A DNA stretch of 64,000 nucleotides, from the NCBI GenBank assembly GCA_963847445.1, contig CAWJZV010000008.1:112432-176431 (forward strand). The letters are read 5' to 3'. The DNA comes from an uncultured delta proteobacterium (GTDB taxonomy: Bacteria; Desulfobacterota; Binatia; UBA9968). Below the pieces are notes generated by a model. That model was not told the origin of the DNA, ran no database searches, and saw only the letters and a list, made by a program, of their open reading frames with translations. The position numbers were made by a program, and so were the translations under genes. Shown here in pieces: positions 6,782 to 18,635 of this stretch (the stretch's first letter is position 1; every line of letters begins with the position of its first letter).

Positions 6782-6996
6782 TGATTAGGTCATTCTCCGC
6801 TACCTAATTTTCATGGTCAAGCCGCCGCCAACGACTCACTCTAGCCAGCCGATGGCGAAGTTGCCTAAGATCGCGCAGCAAAATTGCTGGCGCTGTCGGA
6901 TGTCGCGGTTGCACGCGACAACGAACTTTGGGATATGATTGGGGGCTGTAAGCTAGGAGCCGACATCATAACCACGAGAAGGGAAGCTGCGAAATC

Positions 6997-8734
6997 ATGG
7001 CACAAGCAGGGAACAATAATTGGGATCTCGAAGCCGACGTCATCGTCATCGGCTCAGGCGCGGCGGGCTTGCCGGCGGCGATCAAAGCCGTTGACAATGG
7101 CGCATCGGTGATCGTGGTCGAGGCGAATTACGACGTCGGCGGCCACGCGATTCTCAGCGGCGGCCATATGGCCCTGGGCGGCGGCACCAGCGCGCAGAAG
7201 AAATATAATATTCCCGACTCGCCGGACACGGTGTTCTCCGATCTCACCGATTGGTCTATCGTTCAACCCAATGGCACGCCGGACTTTCGCTACAACGACC
7301 GGGCGGTGATGCGCGCCTTCGCCGATCACTGTGCCACGGCGTTCGAGTTTTTACTGGCCAATGGCGTCGAGTTCGCCGATAAGGCGCCGGACAATCAAGG
7401 CGCGTCAACCACCGGCAACTCGGCGCCGCGGGAAAATCATGCGATTTGGAGCAAAGGCGCGGGGCTGGAGAGCCCCAACGCGGCCAACGGCACCAGCGTG
7501 ATCCGGCCACTGGAGGCGAGCGCGCGGGCCAAGGGCGTCAAGTTTTTGCTCAATTACAAAATGACCAGCCTGATTCGCGAGCCGTCGTCAGAGAAAAATC
7601 CCGGCCACGTGATCGGCATCGACGCGCAGTACAACCCGCATATCATGCCGGGCGCGACCGCGCCGCTAAAGAGTTTTCGCTCCGAAGGCAACATCGACAG
7701 CAGCAAACCGACGATGAAATTGCGCGCGCACAAGGCCGTCATCGTCGCCACCGGCGGCAGCACCAGCGACGTAAATTTCCGCCGCATGTTCGATCCGCGC
7801 TTGACGCCGGAGTTTCAGGTTGGCGGCGAGCCGTACAGTTACCAAGACGCCAGCGGTGAACTCGCCGCCATGGCCGTCGGCGCTTCGCTGTGGGGGTTGG
7901 TCCATCAGGCGCTGGAGAACGGCGCGACCATGCGCTCCCAGCGCGCCCTGGCGACCAAATATAACTACACGACCTGGAAACTTGAGAGTCCGATCTTCCC
8001 GTTGGTGAAGTCAACGGGTTTCAACGTCAAAGACTGGCAGGATTTGATTCTCGTCAACCAAGTCGGCCAGCGGTTCTACGACGAGACCAAGGGCGATCCG
8101 CCGCACGGCAACCATGGACATGCAATATCCGGATTGCACGCCGAACGATTATCGCAACGCGGAAAACGTCAAGTACAATCCAACCCGATACAATTTTGTC
8201 AACGCGGCGTTGGCGATGAACGCATACTCCGAGCCGCCGGATTACTGTCCCGGGCCGCAGTGGGCGATCTTCGACGCCGACGCGGTGGAGCGCGAAGGCT
8301 GGAAGGTGGTGCCGCCCTACGTCGATCCCGATGGTTATTTTTTCTCCGGTAACACCCTCGGTGAACTCGCTGCCGCGATCAAGAATGAATATCAAGCCAA
8401 GCCGATGAGGGGGGAAGTTTTGCAAGCGACCGTCGAGCGTTACAACTCTTTCGTCGACGCGGGTGTCGATGCCGACTTCGGCAAGCCCGCGCCCAAGTAC
8501 AAAATCCAAAAGCCGCCGTTCTACGCCGCCTGGGGTACGGTGATCGTCCATGATACCCGCGCCGGTTTGCGCATCAACGCGCGCTGCCAAGTGGTCGACA
8601 TGAGCGGGCAAGTGATTCCCGGACTTTACTGCGCCGGTGAATCGGCCGGCGGTTTCAATCAGCATGGCATGGGCCGCTGCGTCACCCAGGGTTATATTTG
8701 CGGCAGCGACGCGGCGAAGCTGCCGCGACGTTAG
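6997..8734 (+). CDS. FAD-dependent oxidoreductase (fumarate reductase/3-ketosteroid dehydrogenase flavoprotein family), frameshift near 8110
   Basis: DVIVIGSGAAG Rossmann motif, AVIVATGG, C-terminal HDTRAGLRIN...IPGLYCAGE. Confidence 0.9.
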
Positions 8735-8740
8735 AAGATC

Positions 8741-8811
8741 GTTAGGGGTGAGGCGTCAGGGGTTAGGGGTTCCGGACGCCTCACCCTCACCCCTCACCCC
8801 TCACGATTCAC
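8741..8811. repeat. Heptamer tandem palindrome (ggggtga/tcacccc units)
   Basis: gttaggggtgaggcgtcaggggttagggg...gacgcctcaccctcacccctcacccctcacgattcac. Confidence 0.6.
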
Positions 8812-8865
8812 GGTTTCGTCGCGGAGTGAACACCTTCGGTCATGAAGTCGAAAATCGAAAGGAAG

Positions 8866-10887
8866 ATGAAGATGTCACGCAATCAAATTCGCCTGGAGTT
8901 CGAGAGCAAAACCAGTTTCGCCGGCGGCAAGTCGTTCGGCGCCGTCGGGCCCTATGAGCGGCTGCTCGGCATGGTCCATTTCGCCATCGATCCCGATGAA
9001 AAAGATCTGCCGTTTGTTTGCGATCTCGAATTCGCGCCGCGCAATGCTGACGGCTTGGTCGAGTTCAAAGCGGTGATCGATCTGGTCAAGCCGGTGGACA
9101 TGAGCAAAAGCAATGGCAAGTTGCTATTCGATTTTTCCAATCGCGGCGGGCGCGGCGCGTTCACGCGCTTGAACGACGGCGGCGGCGACTATACGAAAGA
9201 AAATTGCGCCGGCAACGGTTTTCTCAATCGCCAAGGTTACGCGGTGGTCACGGTGGGCTGGCAAGGCGATTTGGTTTATAGCGGCAGCAATGTCGTCGCA
9301 TTCGTGCCGGAAGCGCGCCAGAACGGCCAGCCATTGCGCGGCAAAGTGCGCCAGGAATTTATTTCCGACAGAAAGGGAGTCCTTTCGATGCCGGTCAGCG
9401 GCGCGGCCAACATTCAATGCTACCCGGTGCTCAATCGCGCCACCGCGACGCTCACCCTTCGGGAAAAAGAAGCCGACCCTCGGGTGGCGGTTCCGGCGAG
9501 CGAATGGGATTTAGCCAAGGCCAAGGAGGTCGACGGTAAGATCGAGCTCAAACCTTCGAACGTCGATCTTTACATCAAGGGTGGATTCAAGACCGGCTGG
9601 ATTTACGAATTGATCTACGACACCGAAGGCTCGCGCGTCATGGGGCTCGGCTTCCTCGGTCTGCGCGATGTGGTTTCTTTCTTACACCATGGCAGTAAAG
9701 ATGCCGCCGGTGTGGCCAATCCGCTCGCCGGCGCGATCGACAAGGTCTATGGTTACGGCGCATCGCTGGCCGGCCGGGTGGTGCGCGAGTTCGTATACGA
9801 AGGCTGGAATCGCGACGCCGAGGGGCGCAGAGTTTTCGACGCGGTGCAAACCCATACCGGCATCGGCCGTTTGTATTGCAACATGCGCTTCGCCCAGATC
9901 GGCCGCTATCCGCGCCAGCATGAAGAACATTCCTATCCGTCGGAGCGCTACCCATTTAACTTTGCGGCGATTCCCGACCCATTTACCGGCAAAACAGACG
10001 CGGTGCTCAAGCGTCCCGACAGCGATCCGTTGCTGGTTCACTGTCATACCTCAAGCGAGTATTGGGAACGGCATGGCTCGATGACCCACACCGATCCGCG
10101 CGACGGCAGCGACGCTGAGATTCCCGCCAACGTGCGCATGTACATGCTCGCGGGCTCGCCCCACGCGGCGATCGCCGCCGACAATCCCAAATGGGTCGGT
10201 CAACTGCCGCCGAGCAATTTTTCACCGCAGCCGTTCCTGCGCGCCTGTTTCGTTCTCATGGACCGCTGGGCGAGCGCCGGCGTGGCGCCGCCGCCCAACC
10301 GCGTGCCGCGACGTTCAGAGGGACAGTTGGTGTCGCCTAAAGAAGCGCTCAAGCGGTTTCCAAAAATCCCCGGCGTCAATCTGCCCGCCACGCCAAGCCG
10401 CTTGCCGCTATGGAACTACGGTCCCGACTTCGATGAGCGCGGCATCATGAGTATTTTCCCGCCTGAGGCGGTGCCGGGCAAAGAGTATCCGATCCAAGTA
10501 CCGCAGGTGGACGCCGACGGCAACGACTTGGGCGGCGTGCGCTACCCGGACATGCAGGCGCCGATCGCGACGTATATCGGCTGGGCGCTACGCAAAGCCG
10601 GCTTCGCCGAAGGCGAGCTGATGATGACCAACGGTTGTTTGAAGGCCTTTGCGCGCACCAAAGCCGAACGCGAAAAAATCGGCGATCCACGCTTGTCGAT
10701 CGCAGAGCGCTATCCGAGCCATCAGGCCTATGTCGACATCGTCAAACGCGCCGTCGATGAATTGGTCAAGGAAGGTTTCCTGCTGCCGGAAGACGGCGAA
10801 GACTACGTCGCAGCCGCCCAGCGGAAGAACCCGCTGGACCCGGCGGTGACGATCGAGCCGTTGGTGACGGCAGGCAGGGAGGATTAA
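8866..10887 (+). CDS. Alpha/beta hydrolase domain protein (Abhydrolase_10-like)
   Basis: FGAVGPYERL N-terminus, NRGG, GWQGD, GLGFLGLRD, nucleophile elbow GASLAGR, VPQVDADGN, DPRLSIAERY. Confidence 0.8.
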   Translation: MKMSRNQIRLEFESKTSFAGGKSFGAVGPYERLLGMVHFAIDPDEKDLPFVCDLEFAPRNADGLVEFKAVIDLVKPVDMSKSNGKLLFDFSNRGGRGAFTRLNDGGGDYTKENCAGNGFLNRQGYAVVTVGWQGDLVYSGSNVVAFVPEARQNGQPLRGKVRQEFISDRKGVLSMPVSGAANIQCYPVLNRATATLTLREKEADPRVAVPASEWDLAKAKEVDGKIELKPSNVDLYIKGGFKTGWIYELIYDTEGSRVMGLGFLGLRDVVSFLHHGSKDAAGVANPLAGAIDKVYGYGASLAGRVVREFVYEGWNRDAEGRRVFDAVQTHTGIGRLYCNMRFAQIGRYPRQHEEHSYPSERYPFNFAAIPDPFTGKTDAVLKRPDSDPLLVHCHTSSEYWERHGSMTHTDPRDGSDAEIPANVRMYMLAGSPHAAIAADNPKWVGQLPPSNFSPQPFLRACFVLMDRWASAGVAPPPNRVPRRSEGQLVSPKEALKRFPKIPGVNLPATPSRLPLWNYGPDFDERGIMSIFPPEAVPGKEYPIQVPQVDADGNDLGGVRYPDMQAPIATYIGWALRKAGFAEGELMMTNGCLKAFARTKAEREKIGDPRLSIAERYPSHQAYVDIVKRAVDELVKEGFLLPEDGEDYVAAAQRKNPLDPAVTIEPLVTAGRED

Positions 10888-12222: not shown

Positions 12223-12544
12223 ACCCGCAAGTGAAGATTAGGAAGCAAATCTTTTTCCGCGAGCATATCGGCGCTTGGGCGCACGCTGGCGCCATTGAAA
12301 TTGATCTGATCCCTCGATGCTTGTCTCGCATTGGCTGGCACTTCGACTTGAGTCGGTATTCACATCCCAGCGGTTTCAAGTTGACATAACGCGAACCTAT
12401 CGAATACGGTTTGACCCACAGATGAGGATAGGTTGCCAGTCGGTTTTCTGAATTAGCTGCTCGCGAGTCTGAAACACCGGCTTGCATGGTCTGCGGCCCC
12501 GATTGCCGCTTGATCAGGAATTCACACCCCACGAGAGGTCGGTC

Positions 12545-15500
12545 ATGAAAAAGACAACGAAAGCCAAACGATCCACCGCTGCCACACGGAAGCCCGCAAC
12601 TCGCGCCGCCGCGGCCGTCGAGGTCGAACGACGAGTCTCGGCGCTCGACTGGAAGGAACTCGCGACCGGTTTGGGCGGCGCGACCCGCGGCACAGGCGGC
12701 ATATCAGAGAACGACCTGAGGGATTACTTCGGCGCCGAGGAATTCGAGCGGCTTCAGCAGCTCGCCGGATTCAGTCAGACCGTGCGGTCGCGCTCGGCGC
12801 CGCTCGGCAACGTGATCTTTCTCCACGGCATCACCGGCTCGGACCTGGGCGTTGCCGCCGGTTCGGGAGAGCCGGACGAAGTCTGGGTGAACTTTTTCCG
12901 CCTGATCAACGGCCGCATCGAACGCCTCAAGCTCGCCGCGGACGGCGCCAAGGAAGCGGACCGCACTTGGCGAGTCGTGCCGATGGGGGTGAATAAGCGC
13001 TACTACGCCCGCGCCGTGCTCGCCCTCGGCGGCCGCTGGAACGTCACGCCCTTCGCCTACGACTGGCGCAAAGACATCGACGACTCTTCGAACGAGCTCG
13101 CTAAGCTCATCCGCCGCGACTTTCAGGGCAAGCCCGTGCATCTCGTCGCCCACTCGATGGGCGGGCTGGTCTGCCGCAATTTTATCCGGCTGCACCAGGA
13201 TCTTTGGGAGGCCATGAAAGACCCTGGGCTCGTGCGCGGCGGGCGCCTGATCATGCTCGGCACACCGAACTACGGCTCGTTCGCCATCCCGCAGGTAATC
13301 ACCGGGCAGGACAAGATGATCAGCCTGCTCGCCACGCTCGACGTGAGGCACGATCTGGGCGAACTCCTCGAGGTTACCAACTCGTTCGTCGGCAGTTACA
13401 TGATGCTTCCGGCCCCGGCGAAGCTGACTCCCGCGCTCCAGAAGCTGTATCGCGGCGAAACCTGGGGTGAGAGCACAGGGCTGGTGTCGCAGCGCCACCT
13501 CGACCGCTCCTATCAGTTCCATCACGATCTCGAGGCTGCTGCGCCGACTATCGACCCGACGCGCATGATCTACGTCGCAGGATGCCGGCAGGCGACACTG
13601 TCCGGGTTGAAGATCGCCAGCCGCGGCGACTTCGATTACGAGTTGACCTACGCCGGCGACGGGCGGGTGCCGCACGACCTCGGCCTGCTGGAGAACGTGC
13701 CGACCTACTACGTCGACGAAGCGCATGGCGATCTTGCGCGCAACGAATCGGTCATCGCCGCCGTCGATGAGTTGCTCGAAAGAGGCCAGACGGCGACGCT
13801 CGGGACACAGGTGCTGCGCGCGGTGAAACGCGCGGCGCCGACGATGCGCGACTACCGTACACCTGAGGATAAGCAGCTTATCGAGGATCTCGGGCGGCTC
13901 GCGCGCAAGGCCGAGGCAACTCACCAGGCTGTTCGCGGCGCCGGTGCGCGCGCCGACGAGACCGAACGTGCCGCGCTGCGCGCCACCTTCACCGACGAAG
14001 AGGCGCGCTTCGCCGAAGACGCAATCGTCAAGGCTGCGCTCGGCGGCCGCGGCCGCCCGGCGCAGCAGATAGCGGTGCAACCGATGTCGCCGGCGGTGCG
14101 CGCTCAGATCAAGCCAATCAACGTCACCCTGCTCAAGGGCGACATCACCGAGGTCGAGGCACCGCTTGTCGTCGTCGGCCATTACAAGGGCGTGCCGCCG
14201 ACGCGCGCGGTCGGCGCCATCGACCATAAACTCGGCGGCTGGATCGAGCGTGCCGGGCGCCTGGGCATGATCGGCGGGAACCTCGGCGAGACGTTCTTCG
14301 TGCCGAACGTCGCCAATGCGTTAAAGGCCGGAGGCGCGGTCCTCGCAGGCATGGGCGAGTTCGGCAAGTTCACGCGTGATGACCTGGTGCTCCTCATGTC
14401 GAACGTGACCATAGGCGTATCGGCTCTCGGCCTGAAGGGCTACGCCAGCGTGCTGATCGGTTCCGGTGAAGGCAACCTCGACCGCGAGAGCGCGCTCAAG
14501 GCTTTTCTCGAGGGCGTCGCTGCCGGCGCCGAGCGCTTCGAGAAGGAGTCCGACGGCAGACTGGCGGCGTCTCGGTCGCTGACGATCGTCGAGAAGTACG
14601 ACGCCCCGTTCAAGAGCCTGGAAGAGCAGCTTCGGCGGCTGGCAGGACCCCAATCCTCAAGGGCGGGTAAAGAGCGGACAAGCGGCCGCAAGTCCGCGCG
14701 CCCGCAAGGCAAGGCGTCGCGCATCGACGAGGCGGAGGCGAACGCGCCGATCACGCTCACCGTCAAAAAGGGCGCGCGCTCGGCGGCCAAGCCGGCGCAG
14801 CGCGACAGAGCCGGGAAAAGGGCCGACGTTCCATCGAGCCTGGATGAAGTGCGGCTCACCGTCGAGCAGTTGAAGGAGGGCACGTTCCGCTTCTCGGCTC
14901 TCGCGGAGACGGCCGTCGTGCCGGTGCGCGAGGTCGAGATCAACGCGACATTCGCCAGGGGCGCCGCCGACCGGTTGATGAGCTCGACGACGCGCGACGA
15001 GCAGATCAAGTTCGGCGAGCTGCTCTACACCTACCTGGTGCCGGAAGACTTTCACCGGATGATCGATAGCGGCAAACCGCTCAAGCTCATCCTCGACCGC
15101 AGCACCGCCTCGTATCCTTGGGAGATGGCATGCTTCCGCAGCGCGCAGAATCCGAATCGCGTCTCGAGCCTCGGCGTCGACCTGCGCGTGACACGCCAGT
15201 TCCGCACGCTGCTTTCGAGCGCGCCGGGCATGAAGCCGGTGCTCAACCGCAACCTCAAGGTGCTGATCATCGCCGACCCTGCGCGGGAGCCGGACTACCA
15301 GCTACCGGGCGCGCGCCGCGAGGGACGCGAGGTGGCGAGCGTCTTCCGCAACTTCCCGGCGAAGCAGCACGGGATCTTTATCGAGGTCGATGAACATATC
15401 GGCCCCGATCAATGCGACCCGGTCGAGATCCTGGCGCTGCTGCTCTCCGGAGCATTCGATATCGTGCATTACGCCGGTCACGGCGGCTATGACAAGGACA

Positions 15501-15907
15501 ACCCGGCCGGAAGCGGCTGGATCTTCGGCAAGGACTGCGTCCTGTCCGCGCGGGAGATCTTCCGCGCGCGCAAGGTGCCGCGGCTGGTGTTCGCCAACGC
15601 CTGCTTCTCGGCAGTCACGACCCAGGGGCGGGCACTGTCCGCCGACGAGCAGTCGAAAGGGCTCGCAAGCATCGCTCAGGCGTTCTTCGAGCGTGGCGTG
15701 AGCAACTACATCGGCAGCGGCTGGCCGGTCAATGACGACCAGGCGACGACGCTCGCGCGAACGTTCTACGACGGCCTGCTGAAAGGAAAGCCAATCTGCG
15801 ACGCTCTCAAGGCGGGGCGCGCGGAGATCGGCGGCTACGGCGATACCTGGGGTGCGTACCAGCACTATGGCAATCCGAACGACGTCGTGATCAAGGCCGA
15901 CAAGTAG
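12545..15907 (+). CDS. Multidomain protein: LCAT/PGAP1-like lipase + M17-N/macro-like domain + C-terminal CHAT (caspase-HetF) protease
   Basis: Lipase: FLHGITGS, FAYDWR, AHSMGG, LGTPNYGS, GDGRVP, AHGDL. Middle: LKGDITEV...VVGHYKG...SVLIGSGEG. CHAT: YPWEM, LPGARRE, HYAGHG, FANACFS, WPVND, WGAYQHYGNP. Confidence 0.9.
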   Translation: MKKTTKAKRSTAATRKPATRAAAAVEVERRVSALDWKELATGLGGATRGTGGISENDLRDYFGAEEFERLQQLAGFSQTVRSRSAPLGNVIFLHGITGSDLGVAAGSGEPDEVWVNFFRLINGRIERLKLAADGAKEADRTWRVVPMGVNKRYYARAVLALGGRWNVTPFAYDWRKDIDDSSNELAKLIRRDFQGKPVHLVAHSMGGLVCRNFIRLHQDLWEAMKDPGLVRGGRLIMLGTPNYGSFAIPQVITGQDKMISLLATLDVRHDLGELLEVTNSFVGSYMMLPAPAKLTPALQKLYRGETWGESTGLVSQRHLDRSYQFHHDLEAAAPTIDPTRMIYVAGCRQATLSGLKIASRGDFDYELTYAGDGRVPHDLGLLENVPTYYVDEAHGDLARNESVIAAVDELLERGQTATLGTQVLRAVKRAAPTMRDYRTPEDKQLIEDLGRLARKAEATHQAVRGAGARADETERAALRATFTDEEARFAEDAIVKAALGGRGRPAQQIAVQPMSPAVRAQIKPINVTLLKGDITEVEAPLVVVGHYKGVPPTRAVGAIDHKLGGWIERAGRLGMIGGNLGETFFVPNVANALKAGGAVLAGMGEFGKFTRDDLVLLMSNVTIGVSALGLKGYASVLIGSGEGNLDRESALKAFLEGVAAGAERFEKESDGRLAASRSLTIVEKYDAPFKSLEEQLRRLAGPQSSRAGKERTSGRKSARPQGKASRIDEAEANAPITLTVKKGARSAAKPAQRDRAGKRADVPSSLDEVRLTVEQLKEGTFRFSALAETAVVPVREVEINATFARGAADRLMSSTTRDEQIKFGELLYTYLVPEDFHRMIDSGKPLKLILDRSTASYPWEMACFRSAQNPNRVSSLGVDLRVTRQFRTLLSSAPGMKPVLNRNLKVLIIADPAREPDYQLPGARREGREVASVFRNFPAKQHGIFIEVDEHIGPDQCDPVEILALLLSGAFDIVHYAGHGGYDKDNPAGSGWIFGKDCVLSAREIFRARKVPRLVFANACFSAVTTQGRALSADEQSKGLASIAQAFFERGVSNYIGSGWPVNDDQATTLARTFYDGLLKGKPICDALKAGRAEIGGYGDTWGAYQHYGNPNDVVIKADK

Positions 15908-16113
15908 CGCGACGGCAGGTTGTCTAGAGCGATTATTGATCACCAGCTGATGCGTGAGAAGTAGAGACTCTGCGGCGACGGCTGATACGCCACCTGTCAT
16001 TTTTCAGCATTTTTCAGGGTCAAGCTTTTCAATACAAGCCGTGCGCGTTGGCGCACGGGCCCGGGTGTGGGGCGCACCATATACGACCGCGTGATTTGCT
16101 ACTCAGCGTGCGA

Positions 16114-17017
16114 CTATTTGAATGCGCCAATCCCGGGTGTTTTAACTTCGAGTTTGGCGAGGGCACCGCGTGTCGTGAGATACAGGGTGCGAAAGTCCGG
16201 TCCGCCGAAAGCGAGGTTGCGAACTATCTCCGGCATCCGGAGGATGCCGATGACCTCACCCGATGGAGCGATAACCCAGATGCCGCCGGAGCCGACGCAA
16301 AACACTCGACCTTTGGTGTCGACCTTCATGCCGTCGGGAACGCCGGGAGCCGCCGAGGACATATCACAGAACACGCGGTTGTTGCTCAGGATCCCGTCCG
16401 GGGCCACGTCGAACGCGCGGATGCGCCGATGATTACAAACCTCGCCACGCTCGCGCCTCCTGGAAGCAGCGCTCGTCGAGCCGGCTAATCGCGACGTACA
16501 GCACCGACTCATCGGGAGAGAACGCCAGCCCATTGGGGTACTCACACTCGTCGGTGGCCAGGTGCACGTGGCCCGTCGGATCGATGCGAAATACGCCGGA
16601 AAATCCGATCTCGCGCAGCTCTGCTGGAAGGCGCAGCCCGGGGTCGGTGAAAAAGATGGTGCCGTCGGAGCGGCACACCACATCGTTCGGTTTATTGAAC
16701 CGTTTGCCTTGCCAGCGCTCGGCAATGGCCGTGACCGTGCCATCTGCCGCCATCCGGGTAATGCGCCGGTGATCGGCGCCTTCGCACATGATGAGACGGC
16801 CCTGGCGATCGAGCGTGCAGCCGTTGCCCTCGCCGGTATTTTCCCGCACTACGGTTATTGCACCGTTGGGGTCCCAGCGCAGCAGCCGGTTCCCCTCTAG
16901 ATCGACAAAGGTAACATAACCCTCGGCATGCCAGAGCGGCCCTTCGGCGCGGCCCCAGCCAGTGGCAAGCTGAGTCGGTTCTGTGGATGCGAATATGTCG
17001 GACAGGTTCTCAGCCAT
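16114..17017 (-). CDS. SMP-30/gluconolactonase family protein, frameshift near 16450
   Basis: AEGPLW, GNGCTLDRQGRL, FNKPNDVV, YPNGLAFSPDE, PDGMKVD, NLAFGG. Confidence 0.92.
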
Positions 17018-17107
17018 CGTACACCTCCTTGATTTCCATGAGCGGTAATGAACAGTGCGGACATCGCGAAGATGCTGCTTGTTCTCGCGTAGACGGACTT
17101 CGGGGCA

Positions 17108-17247
17108 CTACTTTTGCTCCAGGCAACAGCGAAAAATCGACAAACTTCTGCGGGTCGAGATCGGCAGGGATCCGCGCTGTGGCTCGCGCGCGGCAGCAAA
17201 AAGCTCATTGCCAGCAATAGGACGATCGATGGCAATTGTCGTTTCAT
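17108..17247 (-). pseudogene. Internally deleted solute-binding-protein remnant (signal peptide joined to C-terminal tail)
   Basis: AAGGAG RBS, MKRQLPSIVLLLAMSFLLPRASHSAD, then in a shifted frame ADLDPQKFVDFSLLP, which resembles the SsuA-like SBP tail KPEEFVDPSFV in this window. Confidence 0.5.
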
Positions 17248-17446
17248 GCTTTGACTCCTTCACACGATGGCTGTCCACTTATGATTGGTCAGGGATAGAA
17301 GTGTCCTCAGCCTGCGCTGGCGATCTTAATCAAGGGCGAGAGCGCCCGTCAAACTCGTGAGGCGCTTTTGCGCGCCAACCACATGGGCGATAAGCGTTCG
17401 ATGCCTTGTCGGCGAGCAACCGTGGTTTTGAATTTGGCGACAATTG

Positions 17447-17475
17447 TTGACAGCCAGCAACGCCGCTCTTAGAGT
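17447..17475 (+). promoter_or_regulatory. sigma70-type promoter
   Basis: TTGACA-N17-TAGAGT about 35 bp upstream of the ATG at 17510. Confidence 0.55.
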
Positions 17476-17509
17476 GGGCACCGGCTCCTATGCTGTGACT
17501 TTAGCTATA

Positions 17510-18635
17510 ATGACAAAGGCATTATTAACATTTCTCCTTACCCTCTCCATCAGCGGCAGCAGCTTTGCTGCGGATGCTAAGCCGTCGTGGCGCATCGAAT
17601 GGGACAAGACCGTGGCGGCAGCGGAGAAGGAGGGCACGGTTTCGATTTACATATTCGAAGCCGGGCCGCTCACCGAAGAAACCGTGCTTGCCTTCGAGCG
17701 CGCCTATCCGAAGATTAAAGTTAACCAATTGCGCGGCCGCGGCAACGATCTCGGTCCGCGCATCGTCGCCGAGCGGCGCGCCGGCAAATATCTGGTCGAT
17801 CTCTTCGCCGGTGGCAAAGGGACCGCGTTGGGCACCCTTTACGTCGGCAAACTGCTGGATCCAATCAAGCCGCTTTTGCTGCTTCCGGATGTCCTGGATG
17901 AAACCGAAATGGTGGCGCCGCGAACATAAATACGTCGATCCGGAGAATAAATATATTTTCGCTTACATCGGCAACGCCGGCGGTGTCGAGATCAATTACA
18001 ATTCTACTTCGGTCAACCCCAAGGAGTTTACATCCTATTGGGATCTGACCCAGCCCAAGTGGAAAGGCAAAATCGCCGCCACCGACCCGCGTTCCCGCGG
18101 CATGGACAACCCGGTGCTGTTTTTCTACTACCATGCCAAACTTGGACCCGAGTTCATTCGCAAACTTTACGGCGACATGGAAGTCGCGATCGCGCGCGAC
18201 TATCGGCAGCCGGTGGATTGGCTGGCATCTGGAAGGTACGCCCTCTGTATCCCCTGTGTTTCGGACGAAATGGACAAGGCGATGGATCAAGGTCTGCCGG
18301 TGGGGCAAATTCTCCGGCTTAAGGAAGGCGGCACCCTGAGTTCTTCCGGTGGGACGCTGACGTTGCTGCAAAATGCGCCCCATCCCAATGCGGCGAAAGT
18401 ATTCGTCAACTGGCTGTTGTCGCGGGAAGGACAAACCGTGGTGCAAAAAGGCCGCAAGGGGCGCACGCGCACCGCGTCCAATTCGCTGCGAATCGATATT
18501 GCCAAGAACGATCTGCCGGAAGAAGTTCAACGCCGAGAGGGCGTCGACTACTTCGATGCCGACGATGATAACTTCGCCGACCGCCGACCGGCGGACAAGT
18601 TGTTCAATGAAATTTTTGGCAAGACGAGTAAATAA
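17510..18635 (+). CDS. ABC substrate-binding protein (Fe3+/thiamine/polyamine cluster), frameshift near 17900
   Basis: Signal peptide, AAAEKEG, ERRAGKYLVD, PKWKGKI, APHPNAAKVFVNWLLSREGQ. Confidence 0.88.

Follow-up and report, generated by a model that had tools for sequence, protein, structure and literature searches.

What is the function of a gene that joins a lipase, a macro-fold domain and a CHAT protease in a single polypeptide, and that now lies between genes of metabolism and transport? The question is raised by an open reading frame (ORF) at 12545..15907 (+) of a 64,000-nucleotide stretch from an uncultured delta proteobacterium (Desulfobacterota, Binatia; GenBank assembly GCA_963847445.1, contig CAWJZV010000008.1, positions 112,432 to 176,431), referred to here as the window; the encoded protein is termed P0001. 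A preliminary description, made from the DNA letters, regarded the gene as a candidate single-gene cell-death or defence system. The evidence below indicates that the solo state of the gene is derived, that a metacaspase gene was deleted just upstream, and that the fusion has been kept under selection since. On balance, P0001 is probably a latent lipase that is freed by a protease domain in the same chain.

Domains of the fusion protein

The reading frame begins with an ATG at 12545, ends with a TAG at 15907 and encodes 1120 amino acids without an internal stop, in agreement with the unbroken ORF of about that length reported initially. The predicted product consists of a pro-segment, an LCAT/LPLA2-type lipase (LPLA2, lysosomal phospholipase A2), a helical linker, a macro-fold domain resembling the N-terminal domain of leucine aminopeptidase (PepA), and a CHAT domain. 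A longer version could start at a TTG codon at 12482; homologous proteins share the MKK start of the ATG at 12545. Three Pfam profiles match above their cut-offs, namely LCAT (residues 166-289, E 3e-8), Peptidase_M17_N (543-667, E 1.6e-7) and CHAT (824-1094, E 2.5e-23), and a search of NCBIfam with P0001 returned no family. The AlphaFold2 model has a mean pLDDT (predicted local distance difference test) of 84.8 and a pTM (predicted template modelling score) of 0.54, with four basic stretches of low pLDDT (residues 1-16, 510-521, 704-732 and 747-763) where disordered basic linkers had been expected. The basic N-terminus (10 Lys or Arg in residues 1-30), together with a maximal 19-residue hydropathy of 1.5, suggests that the protein carries neither a signal peptide, as had been proposed, nor a transmembrane helix. 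The gene is also GC-rich, as described, at 65.8% GC and a third-position GC (GC3) of 0.84, compared with 58.6+/-2.9% and 0.70+/-0.07 for 4452 script-called ORFs of the same genome (genome GC 57.4%), which places it in the top 0.5% of those ORFs.

The lipase domain (residues 86-417; 12800..13795, +) is delimited by Pfam, conservation and the structure model, and contains a nucleophile elbow and a Ser-Asp-His triad of S204 (codon at 13154), D372 (13658) and H394 (13724). In the model, this region is an alpha/beta-hydrolase of the LCAT/LPLA2 type that superimposes on the entire mature LPLA2 (chain residues 3-379) with a Z-score of 29.2 and a root-mean-square deviation of 2.9 over 308 residues, and phospholipase or acyltransferase activity is predicted. 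Whole-domain superposition on LPLA2 and LCAT (PF02450; PDB 4x97 and 6mvd) and on Tle4 (4r1d) gives Z-scores of 29.2, 27.0 and 21.2, respectively, with the triad in common. P0001 differs from these enzymes, to which it is 17-22% identical, in being a predicted lipase of the cytoplasm, in its extra helical pro-segment, and in the macro-fold and CHAT domains added at its C-terminus.

The C-terminal domain (residues 765-1112; 14837..15880, +) is, according to its Pfam match, dyad and modelled fold, a protease of the CHAT/caspase-HetF type. The CHAT profile (PF12770) scores 83.4 bits against a cut-off of 24, the model matches separase and Csx29 at Z 20-24, and the predicted dyad consists of H979 (15479) and C1020 (15602). 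These two residues and the lipase triad are invariant in 95/95 close homologues, and all five are retained in 72-73 of the 73 sequences of a wider set, solo and paired alike, so that the initial view of both active sites as intact holds. A further conserved residue, D1064 (15734), lies 44 residues past C1020, is kept in 80/82 sequences and aligns with an Asp in SAVED-CHAT. In separase, the P1-Arg-binding residue is Asp2070 (PMC10317155), 41 residues past C2029, a residue taken from the title of a PDB entry. D1064 is thus proposed, from spacing and motif rather than from residue-level superposition, to line a pocket for a P1 Arg. A search of PDB sequences with the CHAT profile found a single match, 8tl0 (E 0.002).

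Between the two enzymes lies a domain (residues 525-700; 14117..14644, +; profiles, model and alignment) that, modelled alone, reaches a pLDDT of 95.5 and has a macro fold in that model. Its best matches in both sequence and structure are the N-terminal domains of PepA (PF02789; PDB 1gyt; Z 19.3 and 18.4), followed so closely that the structural match is about even by the PARP14 macro domain and Af1521 (Z 18.3) and many macro domains at Z 15-19. The likeness to the macro-fold N-terminus of M17 peptidases that had been noted is therefore borne out; in the family, Pfam assigns M17_N to 52/78 middle domains and Macro to 1/78 (E 0.069).

Canonical macro domains are marked by GDI and NAAN motifs and by glycine-rich loops, names that were checked here against the canonical macro protein of the same genome. 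Comparison with this protein and with the genome's own PepA indicates that the GDI motif is kept in the middle domain, its D533 in 46/82 sequences, as is the IGxGxGN loop (638-644; G and N positions in 72-81/82). The NAAN and GGGG motifs are replaced by a conserved VGHY-x-GV-x-P (G in 82/82, H in 75, Y in 80), so that the joint set of GDI, NAAN and glycine-rich loops 1 and 2 of PF01661 is absent, and an hhalign comparison with the canonical macro protein aligns the first 19 residues only. The genome's PepA N-domain lacks both of the motifs that are kept. The middle domain thus shares its fold with PepA-N and the macro superfamily, and differs from the former in having no aminopeptidase attached and two ADP-ribose-pocket motifs, and from canonical macro domains in the loss of two of theirs. 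It likely retains a conserved pocket, the ligand of which need not be ADP-ribose. The idea of a binder of ADP-ribose-type signals is accordingly upheld in its fold, and because of the nearer likeness to PepA-N and the loss of NAAN and glycine-rich loop 1, ADP-ribose sensing stays a proposal.

The metacaspase partner and its loss

The commonest neighbour of the homologues is a gene for a Peptidase_C14 metacaspase of about 280 amino acids, directly upstream on the same strand. It is present in 27/84 evaluable loci (20/71 from genomes and 7/13 from metagenomes), and the fusion is solo in 57/84. Sixteen of 100 loci were excluded from this count (11 with too little upstream DNA, 5 without the lipase part), and the 27 paired loci include a partial gene 2 kb away (L053) and an amidase fusion (L042). 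The latter gene (6978-9785, +), from a Hymenobacter genome, joins an amidase to the metacaspase.

In the relatives that are 80-89% identical to P0001 and have upstream sequence, the metacaspase is present in all. The alignment of the syntenic locus L043 with the window reaches 12485 and resumes at about 12506, with approximately 1 kb that includes the metacaspase gene absent from the window. Positions 12486..12505 therefore represent the scar of a deletion, corresponding to L043 about 8943-9963, of a gene for a 281-aa metacaspase (Peptidase_C14, P0122). The junction recurs in L112 (94% DNA identity), and contigs from two studies (runs X6 and X11) span it, and thus the deletion is real; an assembly artefact as the reason for the missing caspase is ruled out on the same grounds. 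The non-coding region 12226..12485 (+), homologous to the DNA ahead of the metacaspase in L043, now abuts the fusion gene. A promoter may lie in this region, where neither a sigma-70 consensus promoter nor a terminator was found. In X18, a run labelled as RNA, diverged contigs only were found.

The ratio of nonsynonymous to synonymous substitution rates (dN/dS) between two solo copies is 0.15 (dS 0.20, first 341 codons), and 0.15-0.19 for pairs that involve caspase-linked copies. The fusion gene is therefore under purifying selection after the loss of its partner, and the solo state in the window is derived rather than original. The picture of a single-gene system that sits alone between metabolic genes is thus accurate for the window as it stands, and does not extend to its origin, as the nearest relatives have the metacaspase partner that was deleted here.

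Deep co-evolution of the metacaspase and the fusion was considered and rejected, as their pairwise identities are uncorrelated for pairs below 60% (rho -0.04, 150 pairs). On a FastTree tree of 82 proteins, caspase presence requires at least 11 changes, 7 of which are forced by well-supported branches. Such a pattern, with partner identity not tracking fusion identity at depth, argues that the caspase has been repeatedly recruited and lost. P0122-like genes number 0-2 per genome in 37 related genomes, and in 36 of 50 solo-locus genomes, all of which may be incomplete, none was found at E<=1e-10 (the search covered 50 of the 51 evaluable solo genome loci). Because most solo-locus genomes lack a detectable P0122-like gene, the CHAT domain of P0001 is itself the likely cutter.

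The genome of the window encodes a stand-alone 271-aa metacaspase that is 32% identical to P0122 (G000:C17:110383-111198, -; L137), followed by a GH19-like gene, and it is possible that this protein acts as a partner in trans. About 6.5 kb from it, two ORFs of 332 and 838 amino acids (G000:C17:100365-103886, +; GC3 0.47-0.48) resemble what we take to be an AAA ATPase and S8 peptidase defence pair of the IetAS type.

Arginine motifs and a proposed protease-gated lipase

If CHAT cleaves its own chain, candidate sites can be sought among the Arg motifs that had been noticed around the lipase. A conserved helical pro-segment (residues 30-83; 12632..12793, +) carries T-R48-G (codon 12686) and V-R81-S-R83-S (codons 12785-12793), with R81 invariant in 95/95 close homologues, and is proposed to be a propeptide with cut sites. 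On the other side, the post-lipase linker (13796..14044, +) carries R425-A and R429-A (13817 and 13829) and long helices (residues 440-499) with V-R464-G (13934), likewise proposed as cut sites. The motifs border the LPLA2-equivalent fold.

The pattern R[GSA] (Arg, then Gly, Ser or Ala) is found within 12 residues ahead of the first lipase strand in 75/79 sequences (shuffled mean 50; 0/1000 shuffles as high), within 16 residues past the lipase end in 71/79 (shuffled 36), and in segment 456-484 in 56/79 (shuffled 37), counts for which the shuffle test overstates significance, because the pattern was chosen after the first motifs and the alignment had been viewed and the 79 sequences are related. 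Inside the lipase core, the density of such motifs equals background (0.6 per 100 residues). There is a weak excess before the macro domain (52 versus 46 shuffled; 74/1000 shuffles as high), and no enrichment in the macro-CHAT linker (55 versus 55 shuffled, 79 sequences). The enrichment is thus confined to the surroundings of the lipase, as the preliminary description had it, and the motifs that bound the lipase are proposed to be cut sites. The partner metacaspases bear the same TR[AG], LRG and MRG motifs just past their catalytic Cys. A complex prediction of lipase, CHAT and pro-segment (residues 28-83) scored 0.40 against 0.27 for the control, which counts neither for nor against this arrangement.

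The mechanism that we consider somewhat probable is as follows. At rest, the pro-segment and the post-lipase helices would restrain the LPLA2-like lipase, and CHAT would be off. CHAT would be activated by a trigger that is probably sensed by the macro-fold domain or relayed by a separate sensor, and would then cleave behind the Arg of x-R-(G/S/A) motifs near R48/R81-83, R425-429 and R464 to yield a lipase of the size of mature LPLA2. The freed lipase would attack the membrane lipids of its own host, stopping growth or killing the cell in a response to conflict, probably against phages. The upstream metacaspase would represent an optional and repeatedly recruited amplifier, or a downstream executioner such as PCaspase in the SAVED-CHAT system, and the lineage of the window would have dropped it and retained the fusion under selection. 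A bolder form, a one-chain death switch in which the macro domain senses an ADP-ribose-type or other small-molecule signal of infection, CHAT frees a membrane-destroying lipase and the metacaspase is a swappable amplifier, strikes us as unlikely as a whole.

Precedents for such logic exist. In Lysobacter capsici, LcCaspase was shown experimentally to turn LcHydrolase lethal by cleavage at R-G (PMC12642450), the substrate of this class of caspase-activated alpha/beta-hydrolases being still unknown according to that source, the main text of which mentions neither CHAT nor macro domains. A caspase gene is always paired with an alpha/beta-hydrolase gene in VMAP systems, as a predicted pair (PMC7159879), SAVED-CHAT activates PCaspase in type III-B CRISPR (bioRxiv 10.1101/2023.06.23.546230; PDB 8tl0), and Canu caspases activate a pro-nuclease (PMC12799240). 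P0001 resembles the LcCaspase-LcHydrolase pair in combining a caspase-family protease, here in the same chain and thus genetically linked, with a lipase-like alpha/beta-hydrolase that bears conserved Arg-Gly motifs (cut sites in LcHydrolase) and is a proposed death effector. It differs in that LcHydrolase, a stand-alone protein of about 33 kDa, is cleaved within its fold by a caspase encoded apart from it, whereas the lipase of P0001 shares its chain with macro and CHAT domains, has the motifs on either side of its fold and belongs to a family that has a C14 caspase as an optional partner; the two R-G sites within a stand-alone hydrolase of about 300 residues are not found. Like SAVED-CHAT, the family of P0001 has a ligand-type domain fused to CHAT and an adjoining C14 caspase, but P0001 has no SAVED domain in the Pfam scan, with macro and lipase domains instead, and the caspase is missing from most loci. 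No CRISPR genes are present among the flanking genes scanned, and the PADLOC SAVED_CHAT model matches residues 973-1090, in the CHAT part, only. With Canu and Thoeris types II and IV (10.64898/2025.12.03.692087), P0001 would share the logic of a caspase-gated pro-effector and the use of macro- or caspase-based effectors, although its effector is a lipase rather than a metallo-beta-lactamase-fold nuclease or a pore. No TIR gene is found among the scanned flanking genes of the window, and such genes adjoin only a few homologues (L067, L110, L123). By their defining features, P0001 falls outside the LcHydrolase (compared by description rather than sequence), SAVED-CHAT and Thoeris families, and by analogy it may work like these protease-gated effector modules with a different architecture.

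The literature search found no description of an LCAT-macro-CHAT fusion, although supplements (the source data of Kaur 2020 and the neighbourhood figures of Evans 2025) may list one. The present analysis adds that the metacaspase is an optional partner, that its gene was deleted here while selection on the fusion continued, where Arg motifs flank the lipase, and that the macro pocket is degenerate. The gating of death effectors by proteases has only recently been established as a principle in bacterial immunity, and P0001 would add to it a widespread family with a clearly LPLA2-type lipase. The exact predicted cut sites, together with natural solo and paired versions at 87% identity, allow a direct test between self-activation and a caspase cascade of two steps; should the macro-fold domain prove to be the sensor, the PepA-N-type macro fold would gain a ligand role.

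Distribution, gene neighbourhoods and alternative explanations

One search for the family gave 1139 homologues among 7999 scored candidates, the listed full-length matches mostly sharing the three Pfam domains, and clusters of the ESM Atlas confirm the LCAT-macro-CHAT architecture. Among species-representative genomes, a relative is encoded in 555 stretches, and the best 79 loci are spread over Acidobacteriota, Nitrospirota, Pseudomonadota, Verrucomicrobiota, Gemmatimonadota, Chloroflexota, Planctomycetota, Bacteroidota and others. Within the genus, a full-length orthologue is found in 1/30 other genomes (G003, 87% identical), and in 0/30 other relatives searched. An 80% identical copy is present in a Bryobacterales genome (L044), and metagenome copies of 85-90% identity occupy unrelated neighbourhoods. 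In G022, the two genes that flank the fusion in the window are separated by about 960 bp, which contain a different small ORF, and a remnant at another site of this genome consists of the upstream region in its deleted form plus about 13 codons of the fusion gene. Gain and loss of the gene thus follow the pattern of mobile accessory genes, with a patchy, horizontally mobile distribution. A plasmid search at E<=1e-30, with phages outside its scope, returned 2 records of about 29% identity, so that plasmids do not stand out as carriers of the gene in that collection, and a repeat finder found chance-like GC-rich repeats only and no element ends.

Longer paralogues of the type DUF7379-LCAT-macro-CHAT-TPR-S are commoner in the genus and its relatives than the full-length orthologue. 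For instance, several genomes of the genus encode such proteins of 1859-2001 residues (L017 7774-13350, -; L019 6326-12328, -). These uncharacterised proteins of 1800-2000 residues have the lipase-macro-CHAT core in common with P0001 and are extended by a hydrolase-like region at the N-terminus and by TPR-S at the C-terminus, where TPR-S may serve as the sensor missing from the short form. In L021-L023, three genomes of the genus contain tandem CHAT-DUF4384 and one or two TPR-CHAT-type genes.

The neighbourhoods were scanned with Pfam using 293 cluster representatives of the 369 genes within 3 genes of the 79 genome loci, some of which are short. A gene of conflict type (SIR2_2, nSTAND1, TIR, SLATT, TPR-S, NB-ARC, restriction-type nucleases, HEPN-MNT, FRG, patatin or CHAT) lies within about 4 kb in about 22/79 loci, a tally in which two loci depend in part on clustering by BLAST (L034 entirely, L081 in respect of its SIR2). 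Baselines were computed for SIR2_2 and the metacaspase only; SIR2_2 is found within about 2.5 kb of the fusion in 6/50 genomes (80 such genes, about 240 Mb), where about 0.1 would be expected. The close relatives L110, L111 and L123 (87-89% identical) adjoin TIR, TPR-S/SLOG and TIR-nSTAND1 genes, respectively. The tie to conflict systems is real and confined to a minority of loci, and the defence context that was anticipated is found to that extent. In Nitrospira-related loci (L036, L037, L038, L053 and L067), TPR-S, TIR, SLATT or patatin genes precede the metacaspase and fusion pair in varying combinations. In L094, a ThsA-like SIR2-STALD gene (13354-14817, +) lies directly downstream of the fusion, with an nSTAND1 gene (7462-9039, -) upstream.

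Several observations weigh against a conflict-type, self-cleaving lipase. A conflict gene, a metacaspase or both are present at 36/79 genome loci, leaving 43/79 with neither nearby, and in some lineages the fusion lies among housekeeping genes, such as the LpxA/LpxB-type genes in Pyrinomonadaceae. A sensor domain was not identified in the short form represented by P0001, and the PADLOC matches (BovA and SAVED_CHAT) are confined to its CHAT part. The basis of the D1064 assignment, the post hoc choice of the motif pattern and the intramolecular position of the cuts in LcHydrolase belong on the same side. One alternative is an enzyme outside defence, that is, a protease-gated factor of lipid remodelling or of stress-related or developmental autolysis that is mobile and not linked to phages. 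The many housekeeping settings, the transport and metabolic flanks in the window, the lack of a whole-protein family in PADLOC or NCBIfam and the varied functions tied to bacterial metacaspases (PMC3501461) fit such a role. The sporadic presence within the genus, the empty site and truncated relic in G022, the transfer across phyla to Bryobacterales, and the SIR2 enrichment with repeated partner swapping are instead typical of conflict genes, and we regard a role outside defence as rather unlikely.

A nucleotide-gated effector, in which the macro domain binds an ADP-ribose-type signal made by SIR2 or TIR NADases in cis or trans and thereby switches CHAT on, would be a refinement of the preferred mechanism that names its trigger, and can be likened to Thoeris types II and IV. 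The macro fold at Z 18.3 to PARP14 and Af1521, the GDI and IGxGxGN motifs that the genome's PepA lacks, and the SIR2, TIR, SLOG, SLATT and TPR-S genes beside some homologues, including L110, L111 and L123, are consistent with it, as are the O-acetyl-ADP-ribose deacetylase label that JGI gives to three homologues (P0043, P0057 and P0074) and the His-ADP-ribose/Macro and N7-cyclic-ADP-ribose/caspase precedents. Yet M17_N far outnumbers Macro among the Pfam assignments, PepA N-domains are the best matches, VGHY and GVxP stand in place of NAAN and GGGG with D533 kept in little more than half of the sequences, and the majority of loci have no NADase neighbour, so that this trigger seems doubtful. 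Least probable, to a degree that makes it hard to credit, is that the fusion needs its metacaspase and that the copy in the window is inactive and decaying since the deletion. The presence of the metacaspase in all 80-89% relatives with upstream sequence would fit such a disarmed state, as would the relic of about 13 codons behind a deleted-form upstream region in G022. Against it stand the dN/dS of the solo copies at a dS of 0.20, the solo junction in contigs of other studies, the intact catalytic sites in a family that is solo at most evaluable loci, and the C17 metacaspase that might act in trans. Latent lipase release by the protein's own CHAT is therefore the reading that we retain.

The flanks of the fusion in the window are metabolic and transport genes, namely an upstream TctC-like gene, which matches Pfam weakly (E 0.055), and a downstream SMP-30/gluconolactonase gene of opposite orientation. 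The latter (16114-17017, -), a flavoprotein gene (6997-8734, +) and an ABC solute-binding gene (17444-18635, +) each seem split over two overlapping frames, as does the canonical macro gene of the genome (G000:C4 about 221400-221800). Such splits may be assembly indels, which makes the intactness of the 3.4-kb P0001 ORF noteworthy. A second copy of window positions 15951-17200, 92% identical, occupies a contig end (G000:C29:1-1263), and represents a duplication or strain mixture in the assembly.

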